A DNA stretch of 64,000 nucleotides, taken from contig OZ316896.1 of NCBI GenBank assembly GCA_973895155.1, forward strand, positions 22,835,722 to 22,899,721, in the 5' to 3' direction. This DNA comes from Marsupella aquatica (taxonomy: Eukaryota; Plantae; Marchantiophyta). The notes beneath the pieces were generated by a model. It was given only the letters and a program-made list of their open reading frames with translations, searched no databases and was not told the origin of the DNA. This document shows, piece after piece, positions 32,509-61,778 of the stretch. A program made the position numbers and the translations under genes. Every line of letters starts with the position of its first letter. Position 1 is the first letter of the stretch.

Positions 32509-33597
32509 AAATTGAAACAACGCTCATCAACTATGCTCACAGAACTAATATCTTCTCCTTCTAAGGGGCGGCATTGAATGGCGAGACCCAAAAATTAGGC
32601 AGCAACAAATGAGTTTTTGAGGAAAGCTCATCCAGATTCTAATTCGATGTGACTTATAATATTCGAACCGATCATGTAGTTGAGAACACGATTTCGGACC
32701 GACCGAGAAGTGTGTCGGAGTTCTCGTTTAGCCCGATCCCCTTTTTTTTCTAAGGCAATGCAATGACCGATAAAACTAGCAAAAACTCTCCGAAACGCCA
32801 CTTTCCTCCATTGCATCGTCGTGGGAATGCAGGGAGCGATACGTGCATCGGGTTTTACATTCCGTCAGTGAAAAAGTCCGAAGTGCAAGTAACTTGGTCC
32901 GAACCGCGTAATCCAGGAACGACCACGCACTAACCCAGGTAAAGGGGAAACTTAACCATGGTTAAGGGGAAATTAACCATGGTTTAGAGCGTCTCCTATA
33001 TAAAGAGGAGCGGGCTGCCCATAAAACGTTTGCTTTCGCTAGAGCAAATATCTCCTGACTGAGAGCGAATACCAAACTCCCATAGAGTCTTACATTCCTC
33101 CCAAGCGATTCGACTCTTTCTACCGAAAACCTGATAAATTTATTGAAACAGCCATTCCTGTTCAAGTTCTCCATGTAAGACTGACTAGTCATTTAGTGTA
33201 AAATGTCCCGATCCGAGCGGACTGCGATAAATTTATCGCATTCTGCATTCCTCTGTTGCAATCATTTGATCCAGTGTTTAGAGAGGTGTTGCCTTCATTC
33301 CGATAAATTTATCGGAGTCTTCATTCCTTTCATGGAAAGAGGAGTAATTGAGAATCCGATAAATTTATCAGAGTTGTCATTTTTGTGAAAGATTGAATTC
33401 AGGGCTTAGGTGTCTGAGGAAGTCATATTTTCAATTCAAATGCGGAGTGCGATAAACTTATCGCATCCTCCTGTGAGAATCATTTTCCTTTGTTTTGTTT
33501 GGAGACTCATCTTCATCTCTGATGTCGCAGTGTTGCCGGGTTTAGGAGGCACAACGGAAGGTCGATTGCACTCCGTGGACAACAGGTATTGTGACAA

Positions 33598-33927
33598 ATG
33601 GCTGTCTTCCTTGAAAATCGTGTCAAACGTGCACGCCGGTTGTACAAGAAACTCGTGCGACTCAAAGTTCTCCCCATTGGTATAAGAGCATTGTGGATGG
33701 GTGGTACTGATCCTGGAGACAGGCAGAATCCTCTTCGCATTGAATTCTGCGGAATGAATGATGCAAGAGTTCCAATTCGTTCGAGGTTGATGTTAACGGC
33801 GTGTTTATATTCTTTGGAGTTTTCTTGTAACTATTGTTGTCGTCGTCTTGACAACAAGTACCACAAACAGGCTCACTTCTGTTGTAAGATTTGGAACGAA
33901 GACCCTTGGGTGAACCTTTCACGATGA
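33598..33927 (+). CDS. Hypothetical Cys/His-rich transposon cargo ORF (109 aa)
   Basis: ATG-initiated ORF inside the TE with CNYCC...H...HFCC; no family recognised. Confidence 0.35.
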   Translation: MAVFLENRVKRARRLYKKLVRLKVLPIGIRALWMGGTDPGDRQNPLRIEFCGMNDARVPIRSRLMLTACLYSLEFSCNYCCRRLDNKYHKQAHFCCKIWNEDPWVNLSR

Positions 33928-34121
33928 GTGTTTCGACCTTTTCATTGAGGCGCGTCTTGTAAGGACATATTTAAATAAACAAGTCCTACCCTTGCGTAGC
34001 GAATATAATACGTCACGAGTCCTAATCGTTAAACTGTCGTGCAGGGTTGGTACTATGGATGTGTTCGGTTACACCTGGTGATTGAAGGTATTTTTATTGG
34101 TGGTTTTGGTAGCTTTGCTTC

Positions 34122-34660
34122 ATGGCTGCATCGGAGAATCTAATTGTTGCAAAGATGGGATCCGTTTTAGCCCACGAGCGTAGGAAATATATTCAAGGAA
34201 AAGTGCCCGGTGTGGAATGCGGAAGTTTGTTGAATGGACTTCCCGATCAACTCGTTGAATCTCACATTTGGCCCCTCCTAGCCTTGTCTTGCACACAAGA
34301 TGAACACCTTGGCCTTGACCTAAAACTTCTACCAGAAGAACGACTGACTCGAATGAGAACAATCATTTGTCTTGGAGCCACCTCAAAGAAATGGAACCTG
34401 TTGTTGGTACACGATTTTGGGCGCTATTGAAATATGCAGTCCGTGAGATCAATGACATAAACAAAATGCTCGCAAGCATTCCTAATGCCGACCTTCTCTC
34501 AAACATACATATTGCTAGGGTCTTCCGAGAGGAAACTCATTTCCTCCCTCCCATAGATATGCTTGGGTGCTTTTCGTATGAGCAATTAGATCAGTTTCGT
34601 AGAGTTTGGATAAATCATGGAAAAAGCGGGAAGCGGACAATTCTTGCATGGCATGGATGA
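34122..34660 (+). pseudogene. Transposon cargo ORF with F-box-like motif, frameshifted
   Basis: LLNGLPDQLVESHIWPLL...LGATSKKWN resembles an F-box; continues in overlapping ORF 34367-34660. Confidence 0.45.
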
Positions 34661-34981
34661 GTCTGAGTGGATGAGGCATTGCTGCAAACATCCGATAAAT
34701 TTATCGCACTCCTCATTCCTCTAGTCAATTTTGGGTGCTCTAAGGTTTGCTCGAGAAGAGCTTGTAAAGAAACACTTTGAATGTAATTGACTCTGCCTCC
34801 CCTGACTTCGGGTTGTGTGGTCCAAAGTGTATTTGTTTGCGCCTCTTTGGACGATTAGCTGACAAGTGCATTGGCTTCACAGCCCGTTATACAAGGTACT
34901 GTAAAGTTGGATGAAACTTGTAGAATTGTAATTAGTATGTTCTCCAAAATTTATTCCTGATTTCTATTCGATGATCAGGCC

Positions 34982-35998
34982 ATGCTCGAGCGACGCATTT
35001 TTGTACCCTACTTGGATCCTCCAGAATGGGGGAATGGAGCCATGCTGGACCAACTAAGGAGGCTGGATGAGTCACTAATTTTAAAGATATGCAGGCTGGT
35101 AGTAAAACCATTTTACCATAACGCATTTCACTTCTACGTAGATCAGGTAGGGGGAGAAATTTATATTCGGTGGGATAGATATGTTGGATTTTCTAGAAGA
35201 GTTATCCTACTCTTTCTGAAAACCGGTGCAGTAAGACGTTTTATACTCCACTGCTGTCATGTTGTGAAGGGCAATCCTGCTTATGAGCCAGAATTCTATG
35301 CCGACAACAGACGTAGAGCATTTGATGAGATTCAGGATGTGATTGCTCGGGGGTTTCACTTCCACAAAAATGGCATATCACGTGCGACGAAGGATAGGGT
35401 CATTTTATTGGTTGTAAGGGAAGACTTAAGAATTTTTGTAGAAGAACAATAGGGTCTTTTAAATTCAATTTTGAAACTTATAAGAACATTAGGGCCTTTT
35501 TAATCCAATTTTTGGAATATTCTAAGAATATTCCAACTTTATAGGGGTTAAAAAATAATATTTTTTTCTTACATTTTAGGGGGTCCAAGGCCTAAAAACG
35601 TCGCAGGTGATGGGGAGGTCCCCATGTAGTGAGACCCCCGAGTGTGATTGACGAGCTGGACAATCCTCTTGCCACCGAGTTTTTTATTGACACTGGTGGG
35701 AAACTATATTCATACAAGATTCGTCAACTCCCCCCAGCCGGTCTGTGCGCTCTTTAACTTGATCTATGTAAGTTGCCTGTGGACGAACGTCCTTGCCAAT
35801 GGTGAGATCTGTCCATGCTGCACAAATGCTTGTTGTGACATTCCGTCACGCCGGTATTCAGTAGCAGTAGTGAATCCTGAGACTGGTGAAGTTGATTTCC
35901 ATTGGCTGTGGGCTTATGATCATCGCGTCACTCATATTCCCCAATGGCCCAAGAAGCGGATTGAACGCTTTGCTCTGGCGAGGTTCAACTATGATTAG
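34982..35998 (+). pseudogene. Transposon cargo ORF interrupted by a MITE; Cys-rich C-terminus
   Basis: ORF 34982 reads into the MITE at 35346; after excision it continues DELDNPLATEFF, and one more frameshift joins it to CPCCTNACC of ORF 35648-35998. Confidence 0.5.
35346..35642. mobile_element. 297-bp MITE, copy A
   Basis: TIRs CTCGGGGGT(T/C)TCACT; 8-bp TSD tgtgattg at 35338-35345 and 35643-35650. Confidence 0.92.
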
Positions 35999-38456
35999 GG
36001 TTTAGGTTTAGGGGTTAAGGTTTTGGATTTAGGGTTCCGAAGCTGATTCTTCGACCTGTACACTCGGCCGTCAATTTAAAGAAGGCTCACTTTTGCAATA
36101 ATTTTATCGGTCATTTGCATTGCGGATCTCTTTGTCCTTGTGTGATGAGATGTCGTGTCCACATGTGCTGTGAGATTGGCGGCGATAATTTTATCGCTCT
36201 TTGCATTGGAATTTGTTTATTTGCAGACTTTGCCATGGCTGCTAGTGGAAAGAGTGGATCTGCTGAGGCAGAAAGTCTCATGACAAGCCTCACCAATGCA
36301 ATTTGGACAAGTGAAGACATTTGTGAAGAGGTCAAGTGTATCAAGAAGTCATGGTACTTCCGTGACGCCAGATTACAGTCCACGGGTTTTGAAGATTGTG
36401 CTACCCCAATCCTTTGGGTCCAGTTGCAAAAATTGGCGAAGGTTAATGTTTCGTATGGCCCTGTCATTGCTGTTGCCGTCGTTGAGTTCATGGTTGGCCA
36501 CGGGGAGGGAAAAGTGTTGACAGAGGGCCTTAGTTTCTTGACAATGTGTGGGCGCAAGGGTTTCACATCTCTCATTGTTACTCTCGATAACTTTGATGAG
36601 AAATCGATGGACAGTTATCCAGAAGATCCCCTTGTTGCCGAAGTTCGGGCAGCAAGAGAGATGAATGTTATGGGTTCGGCTTGGATCGGCCAGTATGTGC
36701 AAGATTGTGATGCCATCATGCTTCCAAGGGTGAACGCAGAGTACAAGAGACTTGTGGGTGAAGAGTTCAAACCTGTCCGCAAAATTGTTTTCAAGAAACC
36801 AGGTTCAAGTGGCAGCGGTGGTTCTAATGCCGATAAAATGTCGGGGCGGAAAGAACCATTGCAATCCTCTACACATATTGACGTGGACGAACCTACAACT
36901 TCTGGTCGGGTTTTGGGAAGTGGAAGAGGGAAAGGGAGAGGTAGCGGCAGGGGAGATGCTGTGGGAACCTCTGACGGTGGGAAGAAGAGCCAGGAAACTG
37001 GCGGTAGTGGGAGAGGCCGGGGCAACCGTCAAGGACCATCCGTTAAACCAAGCAAAAATAAAGGATCCGAGGGATCCGGGCCATCTGGTTCTGGACTTAG
37101 CACAAAGAGGAAGAGGACTGGCTGGACTGAGACGATGGCTGCAGAAGTAGATAGAGCTCCGTCAATTCCATCAGTTCCAGTCGCGGTTCCTGCGGCGCCA
37201 TTGGTAAGTACTACGTTGTTGTACTGTTTAACAAATACGAAATTCGATAAAAATCTCACTGTTTATTTCCTGAATTGTGGATTGTGGAGTTATGTTGAAC
37301 AAATGCAAACTCCGATAAAAATCTCACAGTTTCTTTCCTTAATTGAATTTGCAACGCTTTTGTAGGCTGATCAGGAGGAGGAGACGGTTCTTTTGATGTA
37401 TGAGACGGACGCAATCAAGGCAGAGCTCAGTCTTCTGATGCAACAAAGGGTGCAAAGGACAACTGTGCTTCTGCATGTCGACAATCTCATATTTGATGAG
37501 GAGGGGGATTTGTCAACTTTGATTAGACCAGTGGATAGATTTCATGTGGAAAATATCAAGATACTTCTCATGAAAAACCCCACCAACTTCAGTGCCCCGT
37601 TCGTGCTGTGTGTGGATCCGAAGGATTGTCCCACAACCGCAGATTGGGACATCCTGAAGTCAAGGGTATGGAACTTGTATAGAATTATTGGAGGGAATCA
37701 TGGTGCTCGGGCAAAGTCCGAGTCGTTTAAAATATACGGGAAGCAAATATATGGTGAGCTGGAAGCTTGGGTTTACGCTGGGCTTACGAGATCCGAGGTC
37801 CGAAAGTTAGGCTTCCAGCATAACTATGACCAGGAGTATCGGAAGAACATGACTAAAATTGACCAAGTTCGCGCTTGTCACAATATTTTCCTTGAAATGG
37901 GTGTGGGCTCGACTAAAGATGTCCGCAAAGCATGTTGTCAAGAATGCATGATGGAGTACACGCCAGGAGTTCGTGACTCCATGGCCAAACATGATCCGGC
38001 TTTCCAAATTGTTTTCCGAACAGGTGAAATTTGGGATCTTCAGGAGCAGATTTTCCAGATGTGGGAGAAAGGTATTGTCTTAGGACAACCCAAAAAAATT
38101 GTGGCAACGACGAACGCAAAGGGAAAGGTAAAACCTTTGATGGTAAGGGAGATTAAAATGAATAAACTTGCTGGTGACCTCAACTTAAATTCATTTCGAG
38201 GTCTCCAAGGACTGTCAAATAAGGAGCATGTCAAGCGTCTCTTGAATAGGGTTATCGGGAAGGTGATCACTTTGGATCAAATGCACAAGGAAGGTGAGAA
38301 GTTGAAAAAGCTTGCCAAGGTGAAGAAACTATTTTTGCAGATATCTGGTCAGCCAGATTGGGCAACATGCAGAGAAATGTTTCCCAACAAAACAGATGTC
38401 TCGGTCCTTGGCATATGGGCGGAGAAATTGAATGACCCGGTAAGCATTCCTCTCAC

Positions 38457-38719
38457 AGCATGCTCTATCGCAAGATTTTTATCGGCTTTAGCATTCCTTT
38501 GTTGGTTTCTAAGCGATTGCATCTATCAGCTAGCGTGCTCCATTGCGAGATTTTTATCGGCTTTAGCATTCCTTTGTTGGTTTCTAAGCGATTGCATCTA
38601 TCAGCTAGCGTGCTCCATCGCGAGATTTTTATCGGCTTTAGAATTCCTTTGTTGGTTTCTAAGCGATTCCATCTATTGGCTAGCGTGCTCCATCGCGAGA
38701 TTTTTATCGGCTTTAGCAT
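38457..38719. repeat. 75-bp tandem repeat (about 3.5 units) in intron 2 of the ParB-MTase gene
   Basis: agcgtgctccatcgcgagatttttatcggctttagcattcctttgttggtttctaagcgattgcatctatcagct repeated. Confidence 0.9.
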
Positions 38720-39016
38720 CTCGGGGGTCTCACTATATGGGGACCTCCCCATCGCCTGCAACGTTTTTAGGCCTCGGACCCCTTAAAATGTAAGAATTTT
38801 TTTTAATTTTTTAACCCCTATAAAGTTGGAATATTCTTGGAATATTCTAAAAATTGGATTAAAAAGACCCTAATGTTCTTATAAGTCTCAAAATTGAATT
38901 TAAAAGACCCTATTGTTCTTCTACAAAAATTCTTAAGTCTTCCCTTAGAACCAATAAAATGACCCTATCCTTCATCGCACGTGATATGCCATTTTTGTGG
39001 AAGTGAGACCCCCGAG
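38720..39016. mobile_element. 297-bp MITE, copy B (inverted relative to copy A)
   Basis: TIRs CTCGGGGGTCTCACT; 8-bp TSD tttagcat at 38712-38719 and 39017-39024. Confidence 0.92.
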
Positions 39017-42000
39017 TTTAGCATTCATCTCACGCTATTCTAATTGTAGATGTGTCTGACATTTTTACAGCTGAAGATTAATTCAAAAAGGAAAAGCAAA
39101 GTGGTTCCGGCTATCACTTATAATTCTGCGGGGGAGGTTATTGTTCCCTTAGCTGAAATCCCTTATGTGTTTAAGAATTTTGTGTTTGCTGCAATCGATA
39201 AGTACAATCGGCTGAGGTCCTTAGGCGAGGGCACAGCAGAAGCGTTTGAACAAACATGGAAAAATGCAGACGGGGATTCTTTTCCCTACTATCTCCATGT
39301 TGGTGATGTTCGAATTTTGGATTCTTTTGTTCAGCCAAGGGCTTACACCCTTGCGGTTGCGGATATTCCGTATGGTTAATTTAATGCTCCTGGTTCGGAG
39401 TTTGATGAAGTGGCCTTCACAGAAAAGGACATTTTAGACATGTTGACAAGTTTCTCAAAGATGACGACCGCTAAGCAGTGGAGGTTTGTTGTGATCCATT
39501 CACTACAACAAACGCATATGGTGATGTCTGCACTGGAGAGTGTATGCAACTGTGGGGTCGAGGCTAGAATCTGGGAGAAGACTAACATTCATGAGCGTCC
39601 CGCTGGAGCTCGATTGGCGTGGGGTTTTGAGAACTGGTCGATAGGTTTCTATAGCGAGGAAGGCATTCGAAACATGGACATGTACAATTTCCAACCGGAT
39701 GAGTCTTGCGTCAATATCATCAAGGTTCCATGTGTAACCAAGAAGTCCGTTGATCCGTTGGGATTTGTTGTGAACCCGTATCAGAAGCCTGTTGGTTTGG
39801 GGGCTTGGTTTGTTTCCCATTTCTTTGAGAAAGAGGATTGGGTTATTGATCTTTGTTGTGGAACCGGATCGACATTAGCTGCTACGCTCCTCAATTCTCG
39901 CCAGGGTTGTGCTGTTGATAAGAGTTCTGCGCAGATTGATTTTATGAAATCCTGGATCATGATTCTGGAGTCAAACTGGAATTTATATGAAGAATCCCAG
40001 ATTGAAGGGCACGGCGTTGAAGGTCATGAGATTCAACCACCAATTGCAGGCCAATTGGGTGTTCTCGGGACATCAACTTACGTAGTTGAGTTCGTGAAGG
40101 AGACCGAAGAGGAACAAGAAGAAACTGAGGAAGAGCCTCCCAGAACACCAAATGAGGATGATTTCAACGACATGTTATTAGATTAGTTGCGTGTGCTCGT
40201 TAGGATAATGTCAATCACCAATGGAGTTGTCGATAAATTTATCGGATTCTGTATTCCATGAGGAAGAACCTTTGTCACCTTTATTAATGCGATAAATTTA
40301 TCGGACTTTGCATATATCGGACTATCGCGGTGTTCTAGCTGGGGGAATGGAGTTGTCGATAATCTTATCGGACTTAGCATTGTATGCTCTAATTGGTTTG
40401 TCATTGCAATTATTTCAAAAAAAAAGATATCATTATAGCTGCGGAGTACATAGTCCCAGAACGATAACCACTGTACATATTCATGGGAACGATAACCATT
40501 ATAACTTAAACCTGCAACAAGCTTCGACTATCAACGACTACAGTCTCCATTGCATTTTGAATGATTCGTCTTGTTTGTATAGGGAGAGTACTATTTGCCA
40601 ATAACACAAAGTTATACGCATAAACGGCAGTTTCTGCTAGGGACAATTCATCCTCCAGTACTTTGCTAGACGAAGCCTCTTTCTCCGGATAATATCTGCC
40701 TTCAATTGCAGACTCTTCCTCCGAATCCATTGCATACCAAGTGATTTTAATCCGCTCCGGGATGTCGTTAATTCTTGTGAGAATCTCAGTCACTTTTGCC
40801 ATCCAGAATGGTCTTCCCTTGGGATCCTGATGGGCTGCTACACATATCATTGCAAATTTAGTATTCACCTCTAGATCCTTGAAGTCTCCAATTTCTGTGA
40901 CTTTTCTTCGACTTCCGGAATACATGACTGTCCTCACACCCGCTACTTTATCAACCAAGCTAGGTTCCATTGCTGCTTTCGTAGGATTACTCGGAAGTTC
41001 TCTCTGTACGTTTACCTTGGGCCAACTCCAATCGAAACTCCATTGTGCAGGTTTCAGGTGGTGCTGAATCACTTCTTTTTGTTTGTCAAAAAAACGACCC
41101 CACCATAGACGATCTTCATCGTCAAAGTAATTGAATCCATCTTCAATTGCTCTTCGATATTTTTGAAGAGTTGACAAATAACTTTGAGCCGCCCGCTCAT
41201 CTTGTTCCTCAACATCATTCTCTTGCTCTTCATTGTCTCCTGTCGCTCCCGTGGCCGACTTCAATGCCATTTGTGGTGCAACCCACATTCCAGATGATGG
41301 AATGTACCGAACAAAATCCACTGTCTCCCCCCAATCGGTTGTCGTTGAAAGATGTTTGGCATGGAATACGGACCGAGCACTTCCATCTTCGAGTACTCTA
41401 GTAATCCAAAATTGTTTTTGAGCACTTATGCCGTGGAGAGTACGTAGAACCTGACCATCCATATCCTTGTCATTTGCTTGATCCTTGTCTGACACAAATT
41501 TCTTGAAATCGGCAACCTCGTCGACGAAAAATATCTTTGCCATAGGATTGTAGGATTCCTCTATGATTGCTGAAAGAGTGTCCAACCAGAAAGCTTTCCG
41601 CTTGTTCAATTTTGAAGAAAACTTGCTAAACATTTGATCAATTTGATCATGGGTGTGCCCCACCAATAGGAAACCAACCTTTATTTTCTGGAAAACACCT
41701 ATCTCCACCAACATATTCAAATATGCCATAAGATATTTATTCTTGTTTTCCCGAGCTGTGTTATCAAGCTAGAGGTAAAGCACTGGAGGGAACAGACCTT
41801 CCCAGGTATTCAGAATATGCTGGATAACGTGGATGGTCAGGTTGCTATCATTGTGAATATTTGGATAGTTCAAAAAAACATTTGAACTTAATTTTTTGTT
41901 GAAGATCAAACAACCCACTACATGTACGGGGATGAAATACTTTTCATCCATATTCTTCGGACACCGAATGAAATGAGGTAACTCTGTCTTCTTTTGATCC

Positions 42001-42170
42001 ATTCCATCAATACAGATGCCCAAATATTTCTCCGAATTCTTGTAACATTTGCTCCGGTGCTTTGCTAACTTCTCCCTCTCGACTGCTTGTGCCTTCCGAT
42101 GCTCGTTTAGCAATGTTGAGAATTTTCCTACAATAATAAAAATGTTTAGGACAAAACATGATAACCGCAA

Positions 42171-42335
42171 TGTTGAACCCTGACAGCGATAAATTTATCG
42201 GGTTCAGTATTCAAACACGAGACCGTAATGATAAACCCTGACAATGATAAATTTATCGGGTTTAGTATTCAAACACAAGACCGTAATGAAAAACTGTGAC
42301 AGTGATAAATTTATCAGGTTCAGTATTCAAACTTT
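42171..42335. repeat. 58-bp tandem repeat (about 3 units) in the transposase intron
   Basis: aaccctgacagcgataaatttatcgggttcagtattcaaacacgagaccgtaatg repeated. Confidence 0.85.
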
Positions 42336-43209
42336 CAAACGATATATTCACTCATATGGCCAAAGAAGAAGCACATGAATACTCAACCCGATAAAATTAT
42401 CGGGAGTAACACACAGGTTTAGAAACTTACTCTTTTCTACTTCGAGTGTTGCCTTGTCACAGAGTGCTTTGAATTCAGTACACGGGGCGCAGGTGGAGAA
42501 ACGGCTCCTTTTGGGGATGCGCACGCGAGGAAACTCCTTGTTCCAAATGCGAACAAACCACGAATATGTCATGCCTTGTTCTTGGCGCATTAGAGTTTCG
42601 GACTGGAAGGCATCAAAAACTTCTGTTTTTGTCCAATTGTCAGGTAAGTGAAAGATATCCTTGTTGGGGAGACTCTCGACATTTGTGGAAAAAAAATCAT
42701 CCAGCCATTGGACGAGACCAAGATGTGCGGGTGATTTTTCTCGACAAACTGTACCGATCTGTATCTGAGAAAACATGTTCTGCGAGATTTTTTGGAGACG
42801 ATTATTTCCTAGTGAAAATAATTTCTTAAAACCACTCCGTCAAAAGGATCTACCGCTAACTGAGTAACCACTTGCACCAGCATGCCCACCCTTCACACAT
42901 CCTCTAAGAAGGACGTTTTTCTTTGGGTAGGATAGCCCATAGTAATAAGTGCGTTGTTTTGTCACGGCTAGCAGACCCAAATTCCTCAGACAGTAATTAT
43001 CACAACACGAATACTTATGAATTTCTCTCATTTTGTTTCTATTCAATTTGTCATTTATCACATTGTCTTTCCTAGTAATTCGGTCCCTATCTTTTTTACT
43101 AGGCTCATTTGACTTCTCTACAGCCTGAAATCCGTTCATAACATTGGCATTTTTGGGTCCTTCAGGTGCCTCGCGAATAGATGCATCACTCTCTGCTGAG
43201 CTACCATCC

Positions 43210-46200
43210 TGTCACTTGCCTATCCAACGATTAATACGTGCAACCCGTACTATCCCTTGCTTAAACCGTTGGTATCGTATTACGGGGTCGTGGAGGGACG
43301 CTATTTGGAGGATTTCCACACCTAAGGATGAGTATGTTTGATTCCGCTCCCGAAAGTGTACTTTTTGATCAAGTCTACCGACTGGTCTCTCCGTTTTTGA
43401 TCAAGTCCAAGGGACTGGTCCTACCATCTACAACTCATGCCCACCGGGTGAGTGCTGTCACCACCCCCCTCCTCTCTTGGGCAAGCATACCAACATTTAC
43501 AATAAGATTTGAACTGTCGTATAGTGCTAAGTATCAAAAGTGACTCTTCTCACCTAAAACCAGGGTTTCGATCCCTTAAAGAACAGATTTCAGAATGAAT
43601 TGTATAACTTTTATCTCTCGGAGTGATTTAGAGCCCTGAACTCTATGCTGAATTCACTTTTCAACGAAAAAATCAAATAAACAAACCACCAAGTAACTGA
43701 ACTTCAGATTTATGAATCAAAGAAGAAATGAGTAAGAATTTAGAGACTACAAGCTGCTACTGCCACTCCTTCAGAAAGGATCTGGGCTCAGTATAGACAT
43801 GAAATCTGTCTCATAATTCATCAATCTCACATTTCAAAACACCAAGGTTAATGATAATGGAATTCTCAATCTAGAAGCTTTCTGGTTGCAAATGAATGAT
43901 ATGATTTAAAATGCCGTCAACATGGTTTGACGTCAGCGATGCGCAATTCAGTCAAACTCTAAACCATATTCCAGAATCAAAACAACGGTACTAACTATTC
44001 TGAGAATCAGAATTTACTTCTCATTTATCAACAACTAATCTTGAATTGGCTAGCGAATCTTGACTTCACAAGTAAGCCTAGCAGTGAATTCAATTGGAGT
44101 ATCAGAAGTCTGCAACTGAATTCAATCACCACAGGAATTTCTTGAATTCAATCTCAACTTCAATCAATACAGCTTTACTTCCATACAAAACACTCACAGC
44201 ATGCCTTGTTACAATGGAAGGAGGAGAAAACTATTCAGAAGACTTAATTCTGAATAGAGTATTAAGTCTATTTCTCTCCCCGAAAATGAGCACTCTACTC
44301 TGTCTTATAAGTGCTGGAATCCAAAAATGGAGGAGGCAAGAACAGTCGTGCCTTTCCAAGTTTAAAACTAAACAAGGGAGAAGTACAGCATAAGTACTGC
44401 CAGGGTGGCAAAATACTACTCTACTAGTAATCTACTTCAAAAAACTAAGTCTAAGTGTCGAGTGGACGCTGCTAGAAGCGTCTTAAGAAAACCAACGGAC
44501 GCTGCTCACAGCGTCAATACTAGGGTGGACGCTGCTCACAGCGTCGTGTGTTGAAGCGGACGCTTTGCACCGCGTCGGTCAAAATTCTCATAGAGTCTTG
44601 GTGGCGGTGGGGCAAAGTACACTAGGAATCGTCAGGAAAGCCGGAGATGTCAAATATTTCAATAAGTGTCCAGAACAAGTAAATGTTGGCCAGGAGGCGT
44701 CTAAAGTGTAAGTAAATCTTGAGATATGCCAAAAATAAACAAGTTTCCAGAAAAAATTGCAGGGACACCCATACCACATGAACACTAGTGACAAGGGCAA
44801 ATGTTTCCACAACGACACCGACCACACGCACTAGGGGAGGAAAACAACCAACACAAGCAACAACAAGTGACACACAAAATATTGGAACCTCAAGCCAAAT
44901 CCATATCTCTTGGTGTTTCCCGTAACACATGCAAGGACAACCCGGCCTCCTGCCGTCTGCCCAACTCCTGCCTCCCGGGGACAAGTGCTACGTTCTCCAC
45001 CTCACTACTCTGGCTTGAACTTCTCCTAATCGGTGCGCTACTCACAAAAGCTACTCCAAAGCATCCAAGTACTACGCTGAGTTCCCCCCCTCACTACTCC
45101 GGGGCTCTCCCCCTAAATACCAAAAAAACCACACCAAAGCACCCCTCATGGGGTCACAACGATGGCGGCTACCCTAGCGGCGCCGCTAAAATCCTGTACT
45201 AAGAAATCCCTAAACTAAAAAGGCATGCGGCACACACATGCTGCTAAAACCCTAAACCCTAAACAAGGGGTCGACGGTGCCTTCGACGGCGCCCCAACTG
45301 TACACAGTGAACCCTGAAATTGCAAGGCACCCCACAATGGCCGAAACTAGGTGCCCTATCAATTGTACTTTTGAGCTCACCCTTGGATAGCCCTTCTCCT
45401 CCTGATCCCGAATCACTCAACCGTACTCGCAACGGACATCGGACGCCTGAGTTATGGTCGTTTCCGTATCGCGAAAACACAATTTCGCCGGGCCATAACT
45501 TGCTCATCCTGGCTCCGTTTGAGGAGCGCCGCCTCTTGTTGGAATCAACTCCGCGAGCTCTTTCCAACAAGCCCGTGAGTGACCCCTCAAAAAAAGTTGG
45601 AAATCCAGAGGCCGTACAACCACATCCGTACGACTATCTACTCCTCCTCTTCTTCACTCTCGGTGCCCTGGCTTGTGCCCCGTGAGTGGGCCTCCTCTTC
45701 ATCACTCACGGGAGTGAGTGCCACCTCACTTTTCTTCTTCTTTACCGGGGTACTCTGCTCTAACGTCTCTACTCTGGCTGTGGCGTGCTTGAGAGAATCT
45801 CTCAATGCGTGGACTAGCTTGAGTCCCTCATGGACTCCCTCTCTGAAATCCCGTAGCTCTGCCAGGTAAACATCCGGAATGTTGTAGACCAGGGGCTTTT
45901 TCGGATCTCCCACGAGTGATTCAAGCCACTCCAACGTGTAGTCCTCATCCTGGTTTTCTTCTCCTCTATCCCCACCAGCCGACGATGATTCCTCCGTGAG
46001 CTTCCCTAAAACGGTAGTGGCAATACTCTGGATCTCCATGGTGAGAGATGATCCCGTGTCTTCCTGTCCCGGGGAACCAATCAACCCTTCTGCCCTGGCC
46101 AATACAAATGACCCCATCAAATGTACAGCCCCACCTGGTTTCACACTCCCGGGATCAGCGGCCAACAGCTTCTTCAACCCGTAGTACCACCATCCGTACA

Positions 46201-48330
46201 CATGGGCTGGGTGGTTCTTGATGTCCATAGCTACCACAAAATGCTCTTCATTCACCACCCCGGATTGCACATTGCCAAGGACCTGTTGATGAACCTTGGC
46301 CAGGAATCCCTTATAGTCAACATCCTTGACAGCGTAAAGAGGGATGGCAGTGGTTGAGGTGGGATTAATCACCCAAGTGGCCACCATCTTCAACGTGAGT
46401 TCTCCCCTAATGTGCCGAGGTGTGAATGAGAATTTCTGATTGTCCAGAAACAACAGCCTAGCCAACTCCACATGGGGCACTACACGTTTGAGACATTCAA
46501 AGTAGATTCCCTCCGTTCGTAACTCCATCCCGGCCTCAATGTCCCAGCTCTTCTCCGGAGGGATGGTAATCTCCACCTTCATGAATTTTGTAACCCCGGT
46601 GGCTTGGAAAATATTCCGACAATCCTCCATCACCTTGGCGGAGGTCTTGGGATAAATTCGACAAAAAATCCTCCTACCCACCGGTGTGGAACCTGCTGCC
46701 AATCCCATGCTCATCGTAGCTTCTCTCTCTTCTCTCTCCCTTGCAATCAAAGTCTCCACGTAGTCACGGTAAGCAGCCTTGTATCTCCGAATGCGTGCCA
46801 CACTAAACTCCGGTTGATCTAGCATTCATGCATCCCGAAATCAAATCCTCAATCACCAAATCCCGTCACCCGTAGCAATGTCAATTCCCTAGCCCAAACA
46901 GCCCCCGTAGCCCGATCAATCAATCAACCTCCTCAATTCCCTCAGAAGCCACTCCGTGCTGCTACCGCTAATGCCCGGAAGAATCATGCCAACAAGCCCC
47001 AACAATTGACCAAGAGAAAGAGCTTCCAGAATAATTGCAAAATGTGGAGAGAGCTTTCGGCAGAGCAAGAAGTCACGCAAAAAGAAGGGAGGCAAAAAAA
47101 TGAAATACAAAGAAAAGGGGAGAAAACCCCTTTCTTCACCCTTCCCAACAATCCTTTGTCCTGGCTCCCCTCACGCCATACGCCCCGGCTCGCGGCCCTA
47201 TGCAGGGCGCACACAAGCTGACACGCGGCTGTCGCTTCCCCGTTTCTCGCCCGCCGTGCCCAGTACTTGCCTCCCACTAGTCGGGGAGCATTTACTCCCC
47301 CCGTACCTCTCTGCCTTGGGCCTCCGCGCCCCCCCGTTTCCTCCTGCAGCCCCGCGCCCTCCTCCTGCTCGCGGGAGCCCTGGCTTGCCCCGGCTTGCCT
47401 CCGTACATGGCACGCGGCCCTATGCAGGGCGCACTGCCTCATTACTCCCGGCCTCAGCCTCCCATCTGTTCCTCCCGGCTGTCGTTTAGTCCCCCTCATG
47501 GGAGGGTACAGGGTGCCTCCCCTATCCCAGAGTGCTGCGCCCCTTTTGGGGGATTTAATTTTCTCCCCTGGCATCCTCTCTCACAGCCACCCCCGCTCAC
47601 GGGCTCACGGGAGGGTTTAATACCCCCCCTTTACTCCTCTTACTCCTCGGCTGCGGCCCGGCTGCCCAACTCCGAGCACCTTGGCTTGCCCCGGCTCGCC
47701 CTCTGCCAGCCTGGGGATTCCATGTGGCGGCCCTAGGGCTGCCCCTTATGGGCTCCCAAGTGCTCGCCCTCTGCCAGGCCACTTTAAGGGGCATTTAACC
47801 CCCCTCCGCGACCTCTCTGATCACCGGCCTCCTGCTACCCCGGCCTCCTCCTTAGTACTCGCGGTGTCCCATAAGGGGGAATTTTAATTCCCCCCCCATC
47901 CCCGAGCGCACCCCGGCTCCGCCGCGCCTCGCTACGGTAGCTCTTTTGGGGGGGTTTACCTCCCCTACAGCCTTACCTTAACGCTCCCCCCGGTGGCGCC
48001 TCGCTTTTCCCTTATTCCGTAAAGGTTAGCACTCCTCCTAATCCTTATTTGGGGTCTCAACGAAAGAAAGAGGGAATCAGGGCCTAAGGGAAATAGGGGG
48101 TCCACTTAGACCGACCCTAGTTTCAAGGTCCCAACATCCTGGCTTACTGGGAAGCCATAGGCCTCCAAACTATTAGGATATCAAAGAATGTCAAGACCTC
48201 CTGGGCATAGCAACCGATAATGACGGTCGTAACAAAAAAACAAAAAAACGGCTTATTTACAATGGTTATTTACACTCACAACACCCCGCGACCATTATTC
48301 GTGATTTTGAGTGACGGGGACCCCGTCACA
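43210..48330. mobile_element. 5.1-kb nested insertion, probably a very long solo LTR
   Basis: TGT...ACA termini; perfect 5-bp TSD catcc at 43205-43209 and 48331-48335; no terminal direct repeat or pol motifs seen. Confidence 0.8.
45638..46825 (-). CDS. Uncharacterised 395-aa ORF inside the solo LTR
   Basis: Intact ATG-initiated ORF with a coiled-coil-like segment, basic PVKKKKSE and an acidic tail; no family recognised. Confidence 0.55.
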   Translation of the reverse strand: MLDQPEFSVARIRRYKAAYRDYVETLIAREREEREATMSMGLAAGSTPVGRRIFCRIYPKTSAKVMEDCRNIFQATGVTKFMKVEITIPPEKSWDIEAGMELRTEGIYFECLKRVVPHVELARLLFLDNQKFSFTPRHIRGELTLKMVATWVINPTSTTAIPLYAVKDVDYKGFLAKVHQQVLGNVQSGVVNEEHFVVAMDIKNHPAHVYGWWYYGLKKLLAADPGSVKPGGAVHLMGSFVLARAEGLIGSPGQEDTGSSLTMEIQSIATTVLGKLTEESSSAGGDRGEENQDEDYTLEWLESLVGDPKKPLVYNIPDVYLAELRDFREGVHEGLKLVHALRDSLKHATARVETLEQSTPVKKKKSEVALTPVSDEEEAHSRGTSQGTESEEEEE

Positions 48331-49489
48331 CATCCTCTATAGATCTCCTTGACGCATTTAGAGGGGCACTGAATAGACGACTATAACTATTCTCTTCGAC
48401 AGCTCCTTCTAAACATTCAGACACAACTTGTGCTATTATATCGGATTCTCTATCTCCTTCCTCATCTTCGTCCTCCGATGCACTCGACTCATCTGAAAAC
48501 ACAATTGGACTCCGTGGCTCTCTATACATAACCCGAACGCCACTAAGACCTCTCCTCGATACTTGGAGCCTGGAACCAATGATAGTCCGCCCTTGAGAAC
48601 TTGGAGATTCTGGATTCGCACGTGCAGTCCCAACGACTCCGCGAGCTGCTGGAAAATTGAGCACTTGTTCACCACGATTCCCACGAACCATTCGAGAAAG
48701 GGCCGAGTCTGGACTTCGCAGTCTGATTCCCTTGCTTGCTCGCACATCCAGTCCAGGCAATGCAAAGACCGATCGCCGTATCAGTCTTTGTATTTCTGTG
48801 TTCCGATCCTTACCTGGAGACTGAAAGATCCGTCGTTGAACTTGTGTTGAATGTGGCGACTTGATTGCCGACTGCGATACGCGTATCGGTCATCGGATAC
48901 CCTCTCCATAACCCAGGATGGATGGCTTGAAGCGATGTCTCGGACCTAAACCTGGGATTGAAAGTTTCTCATTTCTTGGCGATGGAACGCTCAAGAGACG
49001 ACGCTTCTCAGGTTTACTAGGCGACACATAGTAAGCACTGGGCTTAGGACCAGAACTTGCATCAGAATCTGAGTCAGAGATTTCGGGCACTATTTGCTGT
49101 GAGAGAGGTAGAGCTTTAAGTATGCGACTTGGCAAACAGCGAGCGACAAGATTAGGAGAGGATTCAACTGAACTGGAAGGAGAATCTGTGTCTGATTGAG
49201 ACATGGCTATTCGAGACACTATGGGGCTTTGCATTCCTCCCGCAATCAGGGAAAACGAAAGGCTCAACGGACAAAATGTTGCTCCAAGAACACAACTCCC
49301 AAAACTCTACTCTCGATAATGACGCCAAAAACTTATCGGCGGTGGCCCTTTTATAGTGTCTATTGAGGGGTTGGCCCACGTGTCCACTTTTGATTGGCTG
49401 TCACCCTAAACGACAAAATAGCAGAAAAGGGTATATTTCTTGGATTTCCAATTTCATTCTCACACGTGCATCGTGGCAAAATTATATAG

Positions 49490-49705
49490 TTTTGAAATTG
49501 AAGCGATAAATTTATCTAATGTTGGTATTGCAAAAGTGGTTCCTTCATATGGAAGTTGCAATTTGAAATTGAAGCAATAAATTTATCTGATGTTGGTATT
49601 GCAAAAGTGATTCCTTCATATGGAAGTTGCAATTTTGAAATTGAAGCGATAAATTTATCTGATGTTGGTATTGCGAAGAGTTTTCTTCATATGGATAGGA
49701 ATTTT
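49490..49705. repeat. About 71-bp tandem repeat (3 units) in the right subterminal region of the TE
   Basis: tttgaaattgaagcgataaatttatct...ggtattgcaaaagt...catatggaagttgcaa repeated. Confidence 0.85.
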
Positions 49706-51166
49706 GAAATTTAACCGATGAACCGAAGGATCTTAGTATTATCGACTAGTATTTTTGTCGCCCGTATTTTCGATAATTTTATCGGACTGCGCATTGCTGT
49801 TGAAAGAATGGCATGTTGACTATATGGTCACTTGCGGAGGTAACTGGTCAATTGCGGAGGTAACTGCAAGGTAAGTTTGACGAACCGTGCAGTAATTCTT
49901 ATCGACTGTGATGTAAAATATTTTTGGTAAATATCCAAAAACTGAGAAAACTGAGATTGGGTCGGAGCTTTCGTGGCTCAAATCCGGAGTCCGATACAGT
50001 TATCGCACTTGGCTCGAAACGTGGATATGGATTTATAGATAAGACCTTTCATATATCTTCGGAGAGCGTGAATATGAGGTTGAGGAGAAAGTTTTTCGGA
50101 TCTAATTGTTCCTTGATAATATGAATGTTTGTTAGTATGAATTTCATTGGTTTTGATCATTATTAAATTTGCTGTTTCAATCCGAACTCCGATACGAATT
50201 ACATTATTTCCCCAAAAATGTGTTTTTGATGAAAAAAACTGTCGATTTCGCGAGATTCGGCGGAAAATGAAAATACACTTCTCGTTTAGAGGAAATAGTT
50301 CTCGTTCGGTCCGAAATCGTGATTGAGGTACTTAGGGTAAATGGTGAGCAAATCCCCCCTTGTCTAGTCCTTCAGATTGGGGCTGGCACTTTGTGGTGTC
50401 TATGAGCAGTACTGTATTATTTATACAGAGTCGTTTCTGACTGAGATGCTTGTTCGAATATCAGAGTAAGGATTTATATGTTGCCCAAGAACGGAAATAC
50501 ATGTAGAGATCGGGGCAAAGTTTCAACCTGAAAACAAGCTGCAAAATGCTGTAGCGTCCTTTGACAACAACTAGAAGACGACTTGTTATTGCTTAAAGCA
50601 CACGTGCCACTAGAAAAGCCCCATTCCATGTCTCATTACTCACCATAAAAGGTGGAACACTAAGCACCTTTTATGGAACACTTGCTAATGAAAGGTTTTG
50701 CACTCACCACTTCTGTGCAGCTCAAAGCACATTCTTGACCGTGTGCATCTTACAATGAGAGCTAGGGGCCCGTAGCCGTTTATAGGGGCAGTTGTGGTTT
50801 AACAAACCACGCACAGCAACGTACTCTGAGCTGAACAACGAGTGGCTTAACGCAACTAACCTCAAGAGTCCTCTCTCGATAGCCTCTGGTATATTACTAA
50901 AAATTTGCTTTGACACGTCGAGCGTGTTCTTTCAGTTGTGACCAGCCTCTTTTTGTTTGTGCATGGCTAAAACGCTTGGTGAGTCCCCGGTTGTTCTATC
51001 CAAGAGCTTTCAAATGCAAACGTTTGACCATTTCTGCAAAACAAGATTGTCTAGTCAACTGTCTAGCTGGGTCGACAGACTGTCTCCAGTAAATTAGAAA
51101 ACAAATTGAAGAATGACGAGATTCTTATGAGTTTCGCCGACTTGGGATCCTTTTGAGCGGGAGTCT

Positions 51167-51478
51167 TGTCAGCTCCATAGATGCACAAGAACGTGGACAC
51201 GAGAACGAGAGACTACAAGATTACGTGATTTGAATATGCAGAAGTGTAAATTTCATAATGCCCAAAACAAAGCCGGAGCAGAATACCTATGAGACTCGGG
51301 GTGGACCTCGGTCCTTATCCCACCATTGTCTCGAGGCAGCCATGTGGTAACGGTAAAAGACCTAACAAAGCGGCTTACTGTAAGAATGTCACTACTGTAT
51401 GTAAACTGCGGACTAACCAACACCTGGAGAAATGGGAAGAAGTTTAGACGAGCACAAACAGAAAGGGCAACTTTGACA
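51167..51478. mobile_element. 312-bp solo LTR
   Basis: TGTCA...TGACA termini; TSD agtct/agtgt; empty site ggagtctgcctt in three paralogous repeats (about 7657, 14230, 57177). Confidence 0.85.
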
Positions 51479-51592
51479 AGTGTGCCTTGGACTACAGAGT
51501 AGATTGATTGCGATCGTCCTATACCTGTTGGCTTGCGTTTCGGGCCATCCAGCTTGGCACAAAGCTATTATAACTTCAACTTGTGACAAGTG

Positions 51593-51920
51593 TCATAATC
51601 TGAAAACTTGTCTCTGCGCACTAAAATCACAGCGACTGCAAGCAAAACTACAAGTGACTGAAGACTCGCGAGGACTGCGAGTGAAAACATCAACGCACGC
51701 CTGAAGGAACACTGCCAGCATAAACTGCACCAACAGAACTTCCAGATTTTTCCCGGGGCACATTCTTCTGCCAGAACTGAAGGGCAAGAGCTCGAAGTCT
51801 TGCCCATGGACATTGATGGTAGTCGACAACAATCTCTCTGGGCCAAACTCAAGGGGACGCTCCCATACTTCAGGGTTCCTCCCTATGGCGTACATATTGA
51901 CGAACACTTGAGATTTCAGT
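51593..51920 (-). pseudogene. P450 3' fragment
   Basis: VNMYAIGRNPEVWERPLEFGPERL...FELLPFSSGRRMCPG. Confidence 0.85.
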
Positions 51921-53701
51921 GGTAGTGATACCCTGCCACCTCTAGTGATTCTCGTTTTCTCTTTGGTGTTCAGACGACAGCTCCCCAACTAAATCATCCA
52001 ACCATGCAAAGACTTTGGTGTGACAGCCCCAACACTAAATTCTTCAACCAGACACCTTCCTGGCTACCTTCCGGGCTGGTGTGAGGGCCCACACCCCCGC
52101 CCACACCCGGTGAGGTAAATCATCCACACAAGAAACCCATCTCTCCCACCCCATAGCACAATTGGGATGCCCTTGGTTTCGGCAGGCAACGCAAGCGAAA
52201 GGGCAAGGAGACTGGGAAAATAATACAACGAAAAATAGGGACCGTCTATCGCAACCCGGAAATATCGGATCAATTGATCTGGGCGCAATCTGCCAGAGGA
52301 TATCGGTGACAGCCAGCCGCCACGATCAAGAGAGCCCTAACGTAAACTGGCATTGATCCCGCGCACACTCAGCAGTTTGGCGATGTACCCTCTGATCTAC
52401 TCGCCTTTGCTTGTATGCAACACCCAAATTGAGCGATGGTTTTCGGGTATAACTCGCCTAAAATAAAAAGACAGGCGTTGAGGGCCGAATTGCACCAATT
52501 GATGAAATATGTACAGTTTGGAAGGAAGCCCTCATGAATTGATCGACACGACACAGCTACCTTGGGTGACACTTCAGTCGTCGTTGGTCATGCGACAACC
52601 TTCTAAAGGACTACTTGATCCCGGGTCATTCTTGTCACAGTCACTATTTGGACTCCTCCAACAGTAGTGGTGACTCCCAGGTCATTCTTGTCAAAGTCAC
52701 TATTTGGACTCCTCCAACAGTAGTGGTGACTCAAGTGTCGAGACTGAGATGTACGTAAAGTCAATGTGGATGATCTTCGCTGCTTCACTGATATTTGTTT
52801 GTGAGACTCTCTCTCTGTTTTCGTCGTTCGGTAATGGAGTTATGCTACCTCCTTTGTTGGTTTAGTGTTGCAGGTATGAGCCGAGGGATGAGCAAATGAC
52901 ATTAACAAATTTTCCCTTTCTTCCCTTTTGCTTTGTCAGCAACCGTATGGTGTCTATTGAGTCTTCGAGTTTGAACGCTACTCATTGAACTGATGCAAAG
53001 AATTACCGTCAAGCAAGGAATTCGACACAACTCTCGATCCTAGCGCGCAACGACCGGCAATCAATTCCGTAGTAACTCATCAATTCCATTCCAAATTGAT
53101 TGTCCAGGTGCATTGCCGAACAGTAGGAATACAGATAAATGCCATTTTCGATTATTCTCGTTTAGTGCTATCAAGACCGGAGAAGTTGCTGCCACTCCGA
53201 AATGAAACTTATTTCGCATATCGATCTGAGGTCTACGGTCAACAGCTCGGAATCTGAATCCAACGTACATTGCCCAGTTTAGATGGACTCGTTGTTACTA
53301 TAGCAGCTTTGCTCTAGAATGTTGTGGGCTGCAGGCAGATCGATTATCATACTATACATCTTACGTTCTTCAACTCATCTTAATGACATGTTGTGCATGT
53401 AGCAGTGGGATCATTCTGAGGTTGAGGTATCCGGCAAGTGGGAGAAGAGCCTCGTCGCTCTTCCGAACTTGTAGGGTCGGTACGTTTCTGGAATCGGCGG
53501 GGGCAATATTTTTACCAACGGGTGATTACTCCGATTCGTACTGGGGTTGAAGGTGGACTGGCTGAGGAATACACACTGTTGAGACTTCCCTGAAGTGCGC
53601 ATTCCAGCAAGCAAGTAGGCATCGATCGTCTTCTGTCTTCAGGCAGCAGTTGCGGCGGAGAAACCTCCGGAACACTAAGTTCACATATATAGGTATCGAA
53701 G

Positions 53702-55057
53702 ATGTTTCACCTGGCCAGGCTGAAAGCGGAGAATCTGACGAGGAAAAGAGGGAAACAACAGCGTGATGCCCTTGAGGGGAGCTCATCCACAGCAGCAATC
53801 ACGGACGAAAACGGCAACAGGGGACTTCTTCCTGGCATTCCGCACGATCTCACGGTACGGATGATTAGTCCAAAACTCTCATGGCGCTCAGTTGAGGCTC
53901 TCTCATCAGTGAGCCGTGCCTGGCAACAAGAAGTTCGAAGTCACGAAATTCATGACGAAAGAGCTCGCTCCCACTCGACGGAAATGTTTGTTGTCCTAAA
54001 CCATACTCTATCTGTTTCTGAGGAGAAGTTTGGGATCGCTCTGTATAGCCTGCGAACAGGCGCTTATCGTCAGCTTCCTCCCATCCCACACATCAAGAAT
54101 GGAATCCCAGATTTCTGCGAATGCACAACCTTGGATGGGAAAATATATATTTTGGGAGGATTGAAGAACAATTCTACGGACTCCACTCTTCTGTGCCAAG
54201 CGGACGTATATATGTTTGATGTGGCTCGGCGGGCGCAGACTTGGGCAAAATGCGCTAGTATGCACACAGCTAGGTGTAGATTTGGGTGTGGCATTATAGA
54301 CGAGAAGATTTATGTATGCGGTGGTTCTAAGTCGTCCAGTGTTGCAACCGTTTCGGACACAGAGGTGTATGACCCCAAAGTCGATGCTTGGACTGAGCTT
54401 ATGCCAATGATAACTGGGCGCAGAGGTCACACAGTTGCAATTGTTCATAATGAGCTTCTGGTGTATGGCGGAGAGTTCCTCCTTGGAGGGTACTGGATCT
54501 TCAACCTGATTCACCGTCAGAATTGGTATACCCGTGCATACCCTGCAGATTATTTCGAGATTTATAACCCCACAACGGGTGAGTGGAGACGACTGCCCAA
54601 CGATCCGAGAATGGATCTTAACGTGCTCCACCCGGTACCCAACATTCCGGGAATGGATCTTGATGACTGGCTTGGTAAAACAGTGTTCTCTGTAGAGGGG
54701 AAACTACATGCCATCACAGGGTCTGCTGTTTTTCAACTTGACCTTGAACAAGATGTCAGGACGCGTGTGCATTCCATCGAACAGCGAAAGAGAAATTATT
54801 GGACACCATACACTCCAGAAAAGGGGCCACTTGCGGTTTTCGCGATGAATGACCAGCTTTTAGCCTTCGATTTTTGGTATGAGTATCAGTATATTGGAAG
54901 GTGCGTTGAAAGAGGCCGAGATGGAGACCTGATCTTTGCTCTTCTTCGAGGCACAGGGTTCGGTGTCAAGGACCAAGATATTGTGTGGGAGAGAGTTCTA
55001 TATTCTCTTTCCTTTAGTTGTTTGAAGTCTCCATTCTTGCGTATTCTTCGACTTTGA
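53702..55057 (+). CDS. F-box/kelch-repeat protein, copy 3 (451 aa)
   Basis: Intact ORF; roughly 30 aa differences from copy 1. Confidence 0.9.
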   Translation: MFHLARLKAENLTRKRGKQQRDALEGSSSTAAITDENGNRGLLPGIPHDLTVRMISPKLSWRSVEALSSVSRAWQQEVRSHEIHDERARSHSTEMFVVLNHTLSVSEEKFGIALYSLRTGAYRQLPPIPHIKNGIPDFCECTTLDGKIYILGGLKNNSTDSTLLCQADVYMFDVARRAQTWAKCASMHTARCRFGCGIIDEKIYVCGGSKSSSVATVSDTEVYDPKVDAWTELMPMITGRRGHTVAIVHNELLVYGGEFLLGGYWIFNLIHRQNWYTRAYPADYFEIYNPTTGEWRRLPNDPRMDLNVLHPVPNIPGMDLDDWLGKTVFSVEGKLHAITGSAVFQLDLEQDVRTRVHSIEQRKRNYWTPYTPEKGPLAVFAMNDQLLAFDFWYEYQYIGRCVERGRDGDLIFALLRGTGFGVKDQDIVWERVLYSLSFSCLKSPFLRILRL

Positions 55058-56018: not shown

Positions 56019-56116
56019 GTTTAGGGTTTAGGGTTTGAACCCAGAACTGATTGGTGCATGGAGTTAGTGGTGAGTTAGTGGTACAGTCAGAGACTTAAGT
56101 TTGTTTAGGGTTTAGG
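56019..56116 (+). repeat. Telomeric TTTAGGG filler plus local duplication at a deletion junction
   Basis: gtttagggtttagggttt (56019-56036) and gtttagggtttagg (56103-56116) replace about 270 bp present at 12901-13171. Confidence 0.75.
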
Positions 56117-61446: not shown

Positions 61447-61778
61447 CGTTGGAAATGAACCACACTCGAACGAAGATGGATACCCCCACAAAGGGCCTGT
61501 AGCTCAGTGGTAGAGCACTACGATGTACACGGGAGGTCCTAGGTTCAATTCCTAGCCGGTCCATGCTGCTGAAAGTTCCAACATGGTATCAGAGCCAAAG
61601 AAAAGGAGTTTCCCTTGTAGCGAGTGCGGCTCAAGGGTGGGTGTTGGAAATGAACCACACTCGAACGAAGATGGATACCCCCACAAAGGGCCTGTAGCTC
61701 AGTGGTAGAGCACTACGATGTACACGGGAGGTCCTAGGTTCAATTCCTAGCCGGTCCATGCTGCTGAAAGTTCCAACA
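61447..61778 (+). mobile_element. 332-bp TRIM with tRNA-like sequence in both LTRs (Helenus-type)
   Basis: 137-bp LTRs at 61447-61583 and 61642-61778 differing at one base; PBS TGGTATCAGAGCC; PPT aagggtggg; 5-bp TSD agaag; tRNA-like segments at 61493-61563 and 61688-61758. Confidence 0.93.

Follow-up and report, generated by a model that had tools for sequence, protein, structure and literature searches.

The stretch analysed here, 64,000 nucleotides of the liverwort Marsupella aquatica (contig OZ316896.1, positions 22,835,722 to 22,899,721; hereafter the window), holds a giant DNA transposon with terminal inverted repeats (TIRs), and within it, beside the transposase gene, a gene joining a ParB-like domain to a predicted beta-class DNA amino-methyltransferase. 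The gene is genuine but broken in this copy, and it belongs to an already published class of transposon cargo genes. We lean, if modestly, towards the reading that this is a dead cargo-gene copy of a plant cut-and-paste transposon, whose intact copies encode a protein that likely binds the element's own palindromes and would methylate nearby bases to keep cognate elements active. The gene is laid out as follows.

36235..37203, plus strand: exon 1, a conserved N-terminal domain of about 185 residues, then a G/S/K linker with KRKR
37204..37365, plus strand: intron 1, GT..AG, phase 0, with two degenerate copies of the palindrome described below (37245 and 37313)
37366..38439, plus strand: exon 2, predicted ParB/Srx-fold domain (conserved R, GG[NG]H, HN) and a ParB-type helical, helix-turn-helix (HTH) region
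38440..39070, plus strand: intron 2, GT..AG, phase 0, with palindrome-bearing 75-bp tandem repeats and a miniature inverted-repeat transposable element (MITE)
39071..40186, plus strand: exon 3, predicted beta-class amino-methyltransferase domain (DIPY ... PYQKP ... DLCCGTG) and an acidic tail
39377..39379, plus strand: in-frame TAA at codon 784, a 3-nt insertion directly 3' of DIPYG

Read from the ATG at 36235, the joined exons comprise 1052 codons (plus strand, spliced translation of 36235..40186). An earlier reading, made from the sequence only, had proposed this model, and its coordinates, GT..AG boundaries, phase 0 and roughly 1050 codons all stand, as do the GGNH, DIPY, YQKP, DLCCGTGS and KRKR motifs, the linker and the acidic tail. 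What it overlooked is the TAA, which splits exon 3 into two open reading frames (ORFs) and terminates the window copy ahead of motif I, so that the intact enzyme it had supposed is not found here. The three nucleotides are absent from the dominant contigs in all four public runs that aligned to the site, and a 184-nt contig of run X2 is identical to the window there except for them. Nor is there a residue at this position in any of the 21 aligned relatives that span it (24 of 25 relatives were aligned, three of which begin downstream). Since neither the dominant contigs nor these relatives have the TAA, the family's frame is open and the window copy is a pseudogene: the three-exon gene is real, and this copy of it is dead.

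The predicted splicing is supported by comparison, because the intron-2 donor is shared across synonymously saturated loci and because both domains co-occur in single chains. The donor lies at the identical position in all five related metagenome loci (for L002 the comparison covers the donor only), synonymous sites being saturated between the window and each of them, and 15 of the 139 homologues of exon 2 also match exon 3. Without the 297-bp MITE and one copy of its duplication, intron 2 measures 326 nt. The N-terminal domain (36235-36798), for which a Pfam search gave no match and the PDB no credible one, shows 32-33% identity to exon 1 of L001 and of L002, and begins at the matching position.

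The proposal of a beta-class amino-methyltransferase was supported by both profile and fold comparisons. A profile of the exon 3 family, run against the PDB, matched DpnA-type, MboIIA, CcrM and RsrI enzymes; N4CMT was not among its 12 PDB matches and elsewhere came only level with RsrI. With the exon 3 model (X placed at the stop; predicted local distance difference test, pLDDT, 73.1), Foldseek ranked CcrM (E 2.9e-13), M.BceJIV, N4CMT and M1.HpyAVI ahead of METTL3. PvuII was also among the fold matches. In the predicted permuted Rossmann fold, motif IV precedes motif I, which is the beta-class order (IV, target recognition domain or TRD, I). As for the Pfam family N6_N4_Mtase, which the sequence-only reading had named as a check, eight of the 41 longer homologues pass the curated cut-off of 26.7 bits (Ginkgo with 65.7), whereas the post-stop piece of the window, at 21.8 bits, falls under it.

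Motif IV requires closer consideration. Its consensus is given as (D/N/S)PP(Y/F/W) in PMC7544214, and DIPY agrees at three of the four positions. The non-consensus motif is a point in favour of an alternative in which the protein binds its own palindromes and the methyltransferase is catalytically dead, serving as a dimerisation or DNA-binding scaffold; another is the decay of the motifs in Chara and animal relatives. Yet the D, P and Y of motif IV, together with PYQKP and motif I, are nearly invariant despite saturated synonymous sites, and D[IV]PY is kept in 20 of the 21 close relatives spanning motif IV. DLPY occurs in annotated phage methyltransferases too (three of the six phage relatives whose genes were retrieved), and the first proline of the motif is described in PMC10406627 as acting via its main-chain carbonyl. 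A census of 54 rows, near-duplicates included, gave DIPY 27 times, DFPY 7, DFPC 6, DVPY 4, DAPY 3, DPPY 2 and others 5. Judged by the substitutions between the window and the five related loci (proportion of nonsynonymous differences, pN, 0.26-0.37; its synonymous counterpart, pS, saturated), the methyltransferase of this subfamily is evidently under purifying selection, catalytic residues included. We therefore regard a dead scaffold as quite unlikely.

Which base would such an enzyme modify? Because motif IV is of the D type and the best matches are enzymes making N6-methyladenine (6mA), we predict 6mA as a more likely product than N4-methylcytosine (4mC). PMC7544214 states that 4mC and 6mA enzymes are not separable by sequence and that a D-type motif IV is no discriminator, which leaves room for an active enzyme whose product is 4mC, placed on the palindrome's CG pairs or genome-wide, or whose substrate is RNA, and from which domesticated plant 4mC enzymes descend. 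The two CG pairs in the invariant palindrome core and the presence of N4CMT and PvuII among the fold matches would suit it. We nonetheless think it improbable, as both sequence and fold comparisons put 6mA DNA enzymes first, with METTL3/MTA1 ranking lower. The sequence-only reading had further suggested a possible source of domesticated 4mC genes such as MpDN4MT1 and N4CMT. This link finds no support, because both are described as SPPY enzymes of other architecture: MpDN4MT1 has TSPPY and no extra domains (Marchantia preprint) and N4CMT has SPPY plus a chromodomain, whereas the window gene combines DIPY with a ParB fusion.

For exon 2, modelling predicts the ParB/Srx fold that had been proposed from the letters alone. 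Its AlphaFold2 model (pLDDT 88.7) brought Noc and ParB to the top in Foldseek (Noc E 8.8e-6, 290 columns aligned), and VIA-align returned PadC (Z 9.1, root-mean-square deviation or rmsd 2.9, 97 aligned), pNOB8 ParB (Z 8.5, rmsd 4.6, 208 aligned) and sulfiredoxin (Z 7.6); for the helical domain the match was middling (KorB DNA-binding domain, Z 5.2, rmsd 4.2, 111 aligned). Pfam did not detect the ParB-like domain of the window protein and matched HTH_ParB in only 2 of 102 aligned family rows, and single-sequence PDB searches gave no useful match. Weak Myb, zf-C2H2_3 and PPR matches were dismissed as chance. The conserved residues are R377, GG[NG]H at 432-435 (G in 71/79, G in 75/80, N in 43/80 and H in 73/80 across the family) and HN at 475-476. 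ParB CTPases carry a GxRRxxA arginine patch; in this family GG[NG]H replaces GxRR, and for that reason we do not assume CTP-gated sliding in the style of bacterial ParB.

Self-dimerisation of exon 2 is a marginal pass, and may mirror a resemblance to solved ParB dimers. The homodimer model reached 0.36, the best control 0.00 (runs 0.01, 0.36 and 0.39), with at least 38% of contacts in common between runs, pLDDT of at least 55 and the interface within the ParB domain. Among microbial proteins the mark used is passed by 21 of 30 solved homodimers but by none of 23 monomers; among eukaryotic homodimers 17 of 29 pass it. Beta-class methyltransferases need a dimer for activity, according to PMC7544214.

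Organism names, looked up for 30 of the homologue matches, include Chara, Ginkgo, Riccia, Adiantum, the dictyostelid Clastostelium and marine animals, and the single-chain ParB-methyltransferase proteins include ones from the first four. The closest homologues share 57-74% identity over the methyltransferase and phage enzymes only 23-31%; in viral contigs and prokaryotic genomes no close relative was found, and an exon 3 search among longer proteins gave no match. A small tree of 19 chosen family rows and six phage enzymes sets the eukaryotic family apart from the latter (support 99/99). Its backbone is open, and MpDN4MT1, N4CMT and algal proteins were left out of it, so we name no donor. Some ParB-like relatives (P0030, P0063, P0102) are without the methyltransferase; one carries a SAM (sterile alpha) domain, and another, with a Tudor-like end, occurs in four Haliotis (abalone) species and is possibly domesticated.

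That the gene is carried by a transposon, as the sequence-only reading had supposed, is supported by the element's ends, target duplication, empty sites and neighbouring transposase.

32685..50323: TIR DNA transposon, 17.6 kb, or 12.5 kb without a nested insertion, with TIRs and target duplication
32681..32684, plus strand: left target-site duplication TGAG (TTGAG under a 5-bp reading)
32685..32709, plus strand: left TIR, about 25 bp, overlapped by a CGA-N8-TCG site at 32704
32826..50005: dispersed motif AAT-N8-CGA-N8-TCG-N8-ATT, its centre mostly CGATAAATTTATCG
40506..43209, minus strand: DUF7869 DDE-type transposase gene (PF25273, E 1e-31), with two premature stops
50299..50323, minus strand: right TIR, 22/23 matches counted from the CACG start
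50324..50327, plus strand: right target-site duplication TGAG

The flanks of the element fuse into one sequence in window paralogues near 13596, 56531 and 6793, which represent the empty site. The length of the duplication is read from this single insertion: 4 bp gives symmetric ends, and 5 bp fits too. The transposase gene, which has one likely, palindrome-rich intron (~42128-42428), lies tail-to-tail with the ParB-methyltransferase gene, an arrangement repeated in three of the five metagenome loci (L002, L003 and L004), whilst the other two end inside the expected gap. Its motifs DN..ENKN and GH.....D..FS are ones that we take to be linked to Sola; the term DUF7869 was not found in a literature search.

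The palindrome is what connects this protein, in our proposal, to its own element. Cores lie, among others, at 32837, 33225, 33301, 33450, 34693, 36183, 38546, 38621, 38696, 40231, 40290, 40357, 42187, 42389, 49771 and 49992. With one mismatch at most, GATAAATTTATC occurs 17 times in the 64-kb window, all 17 inside the element core, and a pattern with the AAT flank on one side has 18 matches, again all within the core, where 0.42 are expected, the pattern having been derived from the same sequences in which the matches were counted. The inner CGA-N8-TCG alone is found 19 times in the 12.5-kb core against 2.1 in shuffled sequence (maximum 7 among 100 shuffles) and 9 times elsewhere in the window, where 6.8 are expected. 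It is enriched in all five related loci (5-22 sites per locus against 0.5-1.1), and a spacer of 8 is the only one enriched for the CGA/TCG pair. Half-sites bear the AAT/ATT flank in 62 of 106 cases in the loci and 18 of 38 in the element, compared with 0 of 20 outside it. The frame AAT-N8-CGA-N8-TCG-N8-ATT is constant across families and the centre family-specific: CGAGACNNGTCTCG types occur in four loci and CGATCCAAACATCG in one. The sites also keep largely to non-coding DNA: of the 26 relaxed sites in the window none falls in coding sequence, and of the 53 in the loci only 5 do. In the related loci they occupy the spacer, the two introns and the region 5' of the gene.

Could these palindromes instead serve the transposase, in the manner of subterminal repeats, leaving the ParB-methyltransferase with another sequence-specific target or with none? 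One site overlaps the left TIR, and there are clusters close to the two ends and inside the transposase intron, which speaks for it. However, in six of six elements, where covered, the methyltransferase gene has such sites throughout its two introns and on either side, at distances of kilobases from the element's ends, and ParB-type domains are in general palindrome binders. Red-algal ParB cargo genes likewise adjoin inverted-repeat arrays (bioRxiv 10.1101/2025.02.11.637652). Taken together, we consider a role as transposase sites unlikely.

Under the reading that we favour, self-binding and methylation, the ParB-type helical region, probably as a dimer, would read the inner CGA-N8-TCG palindrome, and centres that differ between families would give each family a private address. 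The tethered methyltransferase would then modify nearby DNA, likely at adenine, the outer AAT/ATT at its fixed distance being a candidate 6mA target or a second contact. Perhaps the mark, or the bound protein itself, counters host silencing or aids mobilisation, by analogy with VANC of the VANDAL transposons. In other eukaryotes, 6mA linked to transcription lies in an ApT context (PMC12695648), and a connection to the ApT of the outer AAT/ATT is speculation on our part.

Several points weigh against this reading. Many of the sites are products of tandem duplication rather than independent occurrences, and the five related loci share one dataset prefix. Those sites that overlap the left TIR, lie towards the two ends or fall within the transposase intron fit transposase binding. 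Motif IV departs from the consensus reported in PMC7544214 and is decayed in many more distant relatives (DFPC 6 and DAPY 3 of the 54 rows), and its D type leaves 6mA versus 4mC unsettled on that paper's account. Co-variation between the putative recognition helix and the palindrome centre was sought among families and not seen, because the helix differs little between families with different centres. A footprint of CpG protection is likewise not seen in the coding parts of the element, where CpG is depleted (0.69-0.74) at least as strongly as it is in the flanks (0.73-0.80).

More tentatively, a broader picture may be drawn: a prokaryote-derived, family-addressed methylation system in giant DNA transposons of land plants, in which a ParB-type dimer loads at parS-like operators, possibly spreads as a clamp, and an active enzyme writes 6mA or 4mC against host silencing by 5-methylcytosine (5mC). 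This has, in our estimation, a real though lesser chance of being correct. If so, it would constitute an unrecognised origin of amino-methylated plant DNA and a naturally targeted methyl writer; the narrower reading, if true, would add to VANC a second means by which plant transposons protect themselves, and 6mA or 4mC would have a local source. Either way, the gene is worth more than a routine member of its class, because the subfamily keeps its catalytic residues and has a defined, conserved candidate operator. What it contributes is D[IV]PY under purifying selection, along with a cis motif of constant frame and family-specific centre.

The nested insertion and both MITEs are later additions to the element.

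43210..48330: nested TG..CA insertion, 5.1 kb, CATCC duplication, abutting the recognised transposase coding region on its 5' side
38720..39016, minus strand: 297-bp MITE, copy in intron 2, 8-bp duplication
35346..35642, plus strand: 297-bp MITE, second copy

Contigs of runs X1 and X2 bypass the nested insertion (joint 43204-48331) and the intron 2 MITE (joint 38711-39017). An internal pair of long terminal repeats (LTRs) was not found in the nested insertion, which is possibly a long solo LTR; inside it are a second TG..CA piece (43510-44778), skipped by other contigs, and a 394-codon ORF (45638-46825, minus strand) with no Pfam match. Both MITEs have a TIR beginning CTCGGGGGT, 8-bp duplications and a contig depth, not to be read as copy number in these public runs, far above the rest of the element; the copy in intron 2 directly adjoins the palindrome site at 38696. 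In the transposase, the C-terminal domain (40509-41000, minus strand; FWMAKV..KITWY) is conserved and looks Tudor/BAH-like by eye, with no Pfam support. Ser-rich open stretches beyond the nested insertion (48332-49306, minus strand; no domain match) may be its 5' part. The left arm, about 2.5 kb at 33500-36000, contains broken ORF pieces without a Pfam match and is covered by the runs to the same degree as other parts of the element; it is apparently missing from L001 and L002, and is possibly another decayed cargo gene. Window 32950-33015 and L001 1-40 share a promoter-like AACCATGGT palindrome with a TATA-like box after it, the non-coding DNA of L001 being otherwise unalignable to the window. 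The flanks (1-32600 and 50324-64000) comprise segmental repeats, among which lie three kelch-repeat genes, two copies of ABCG, fragments of P450 and, at about 27.6-32.0 kb, a broken copia element; these kelch, ABCG, P450 and copia sequences mark the host as a land plant.

How does this system compare with those already known? A literature search found no land-plant element of this kind, nor the motif, though subscription papers were mostly outside its scope and the Bostrychia preprint may cover comparable repeats in its supplements. In predicted fold and IV-TRD-I order the enzyme resembles CcrM, M.MboIIA, M.RsrI, M1.HpyAVI, N4CMT and DN4MT1; it differs from these beta-class enzymes in its DIPY, its ParB fusion and its introns. 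With the ParB/Noc/KorB clamps it shares the predicted fold of the nucleotide-binding part and, more tentatively, of the helical DNA-binding part, and a predicted self-dimer through the N-terminal domain. It departs from them in having GG[NG]H for the GxRR patch, in its enzyme fusion, and in that a ParA partner was not seen. Other ParB-linked clades have been described by Iyer et al. 2016 (PMC4738411).

A further parallel is VANC with the VANDAL elements of Arabidopsis, whose targets, according to PMC5735166, are multiplied as tandem repeats in introns and differ between families. Here too an accessory protein is encoded by a transposon, and short family-specific motifs are tandemly multiplied in introns and other non-coding parts. 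VANC is an unrelated protein (DUF1985/DUF287) that removes 5mC, as proven by experiment, whereas the case here is inferred. The PAG2/PAG3 accessory genes of red-algal Plavaka elements (Petroll et al., bioRxiv 10.1101/2025.02.11.637652) have ParB and methylase cargo and inverted-repeat arrays proposed as binding sites; a ParB-like domain, a PF01555 methylase and repeats as proposed binding sites are thus common to both. In those elements, however, two genes are involved, one with ParB joined to a 2-oxoglutarate (2OG) oxygenase and another with the methylase joined to a SET domain; the repeats form adjacent arrays, and the transposase is of the EnSpm/Plavaka type.

Also close is Sola1-1_Ec32 of Ectocarpus, in which Dinatale et al. 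(PMC12477816) describe a 1104-aa ParB and N4C/N6A methyltransferase gene opposite the transposase, and propose self-binding and self-modification. The architecture was therefore already published. Compared by description, and within the accessible part of that account, which gives no binding motif, Sola1-1_Ec32 differs in its host, here a land plant, in its termini (AACCG..CGGTT, against AACACG..CGTGAT here) and in its TIR (282 bp, against about 25 bp here). What the two have in common is a single product of about 1,100 aa with ParB and methyltransferase in one gene, which runs opposite to the transposase gene and belongs to a giant TIR element with a target duplication (4 bp there, 4 or 5 bp here).

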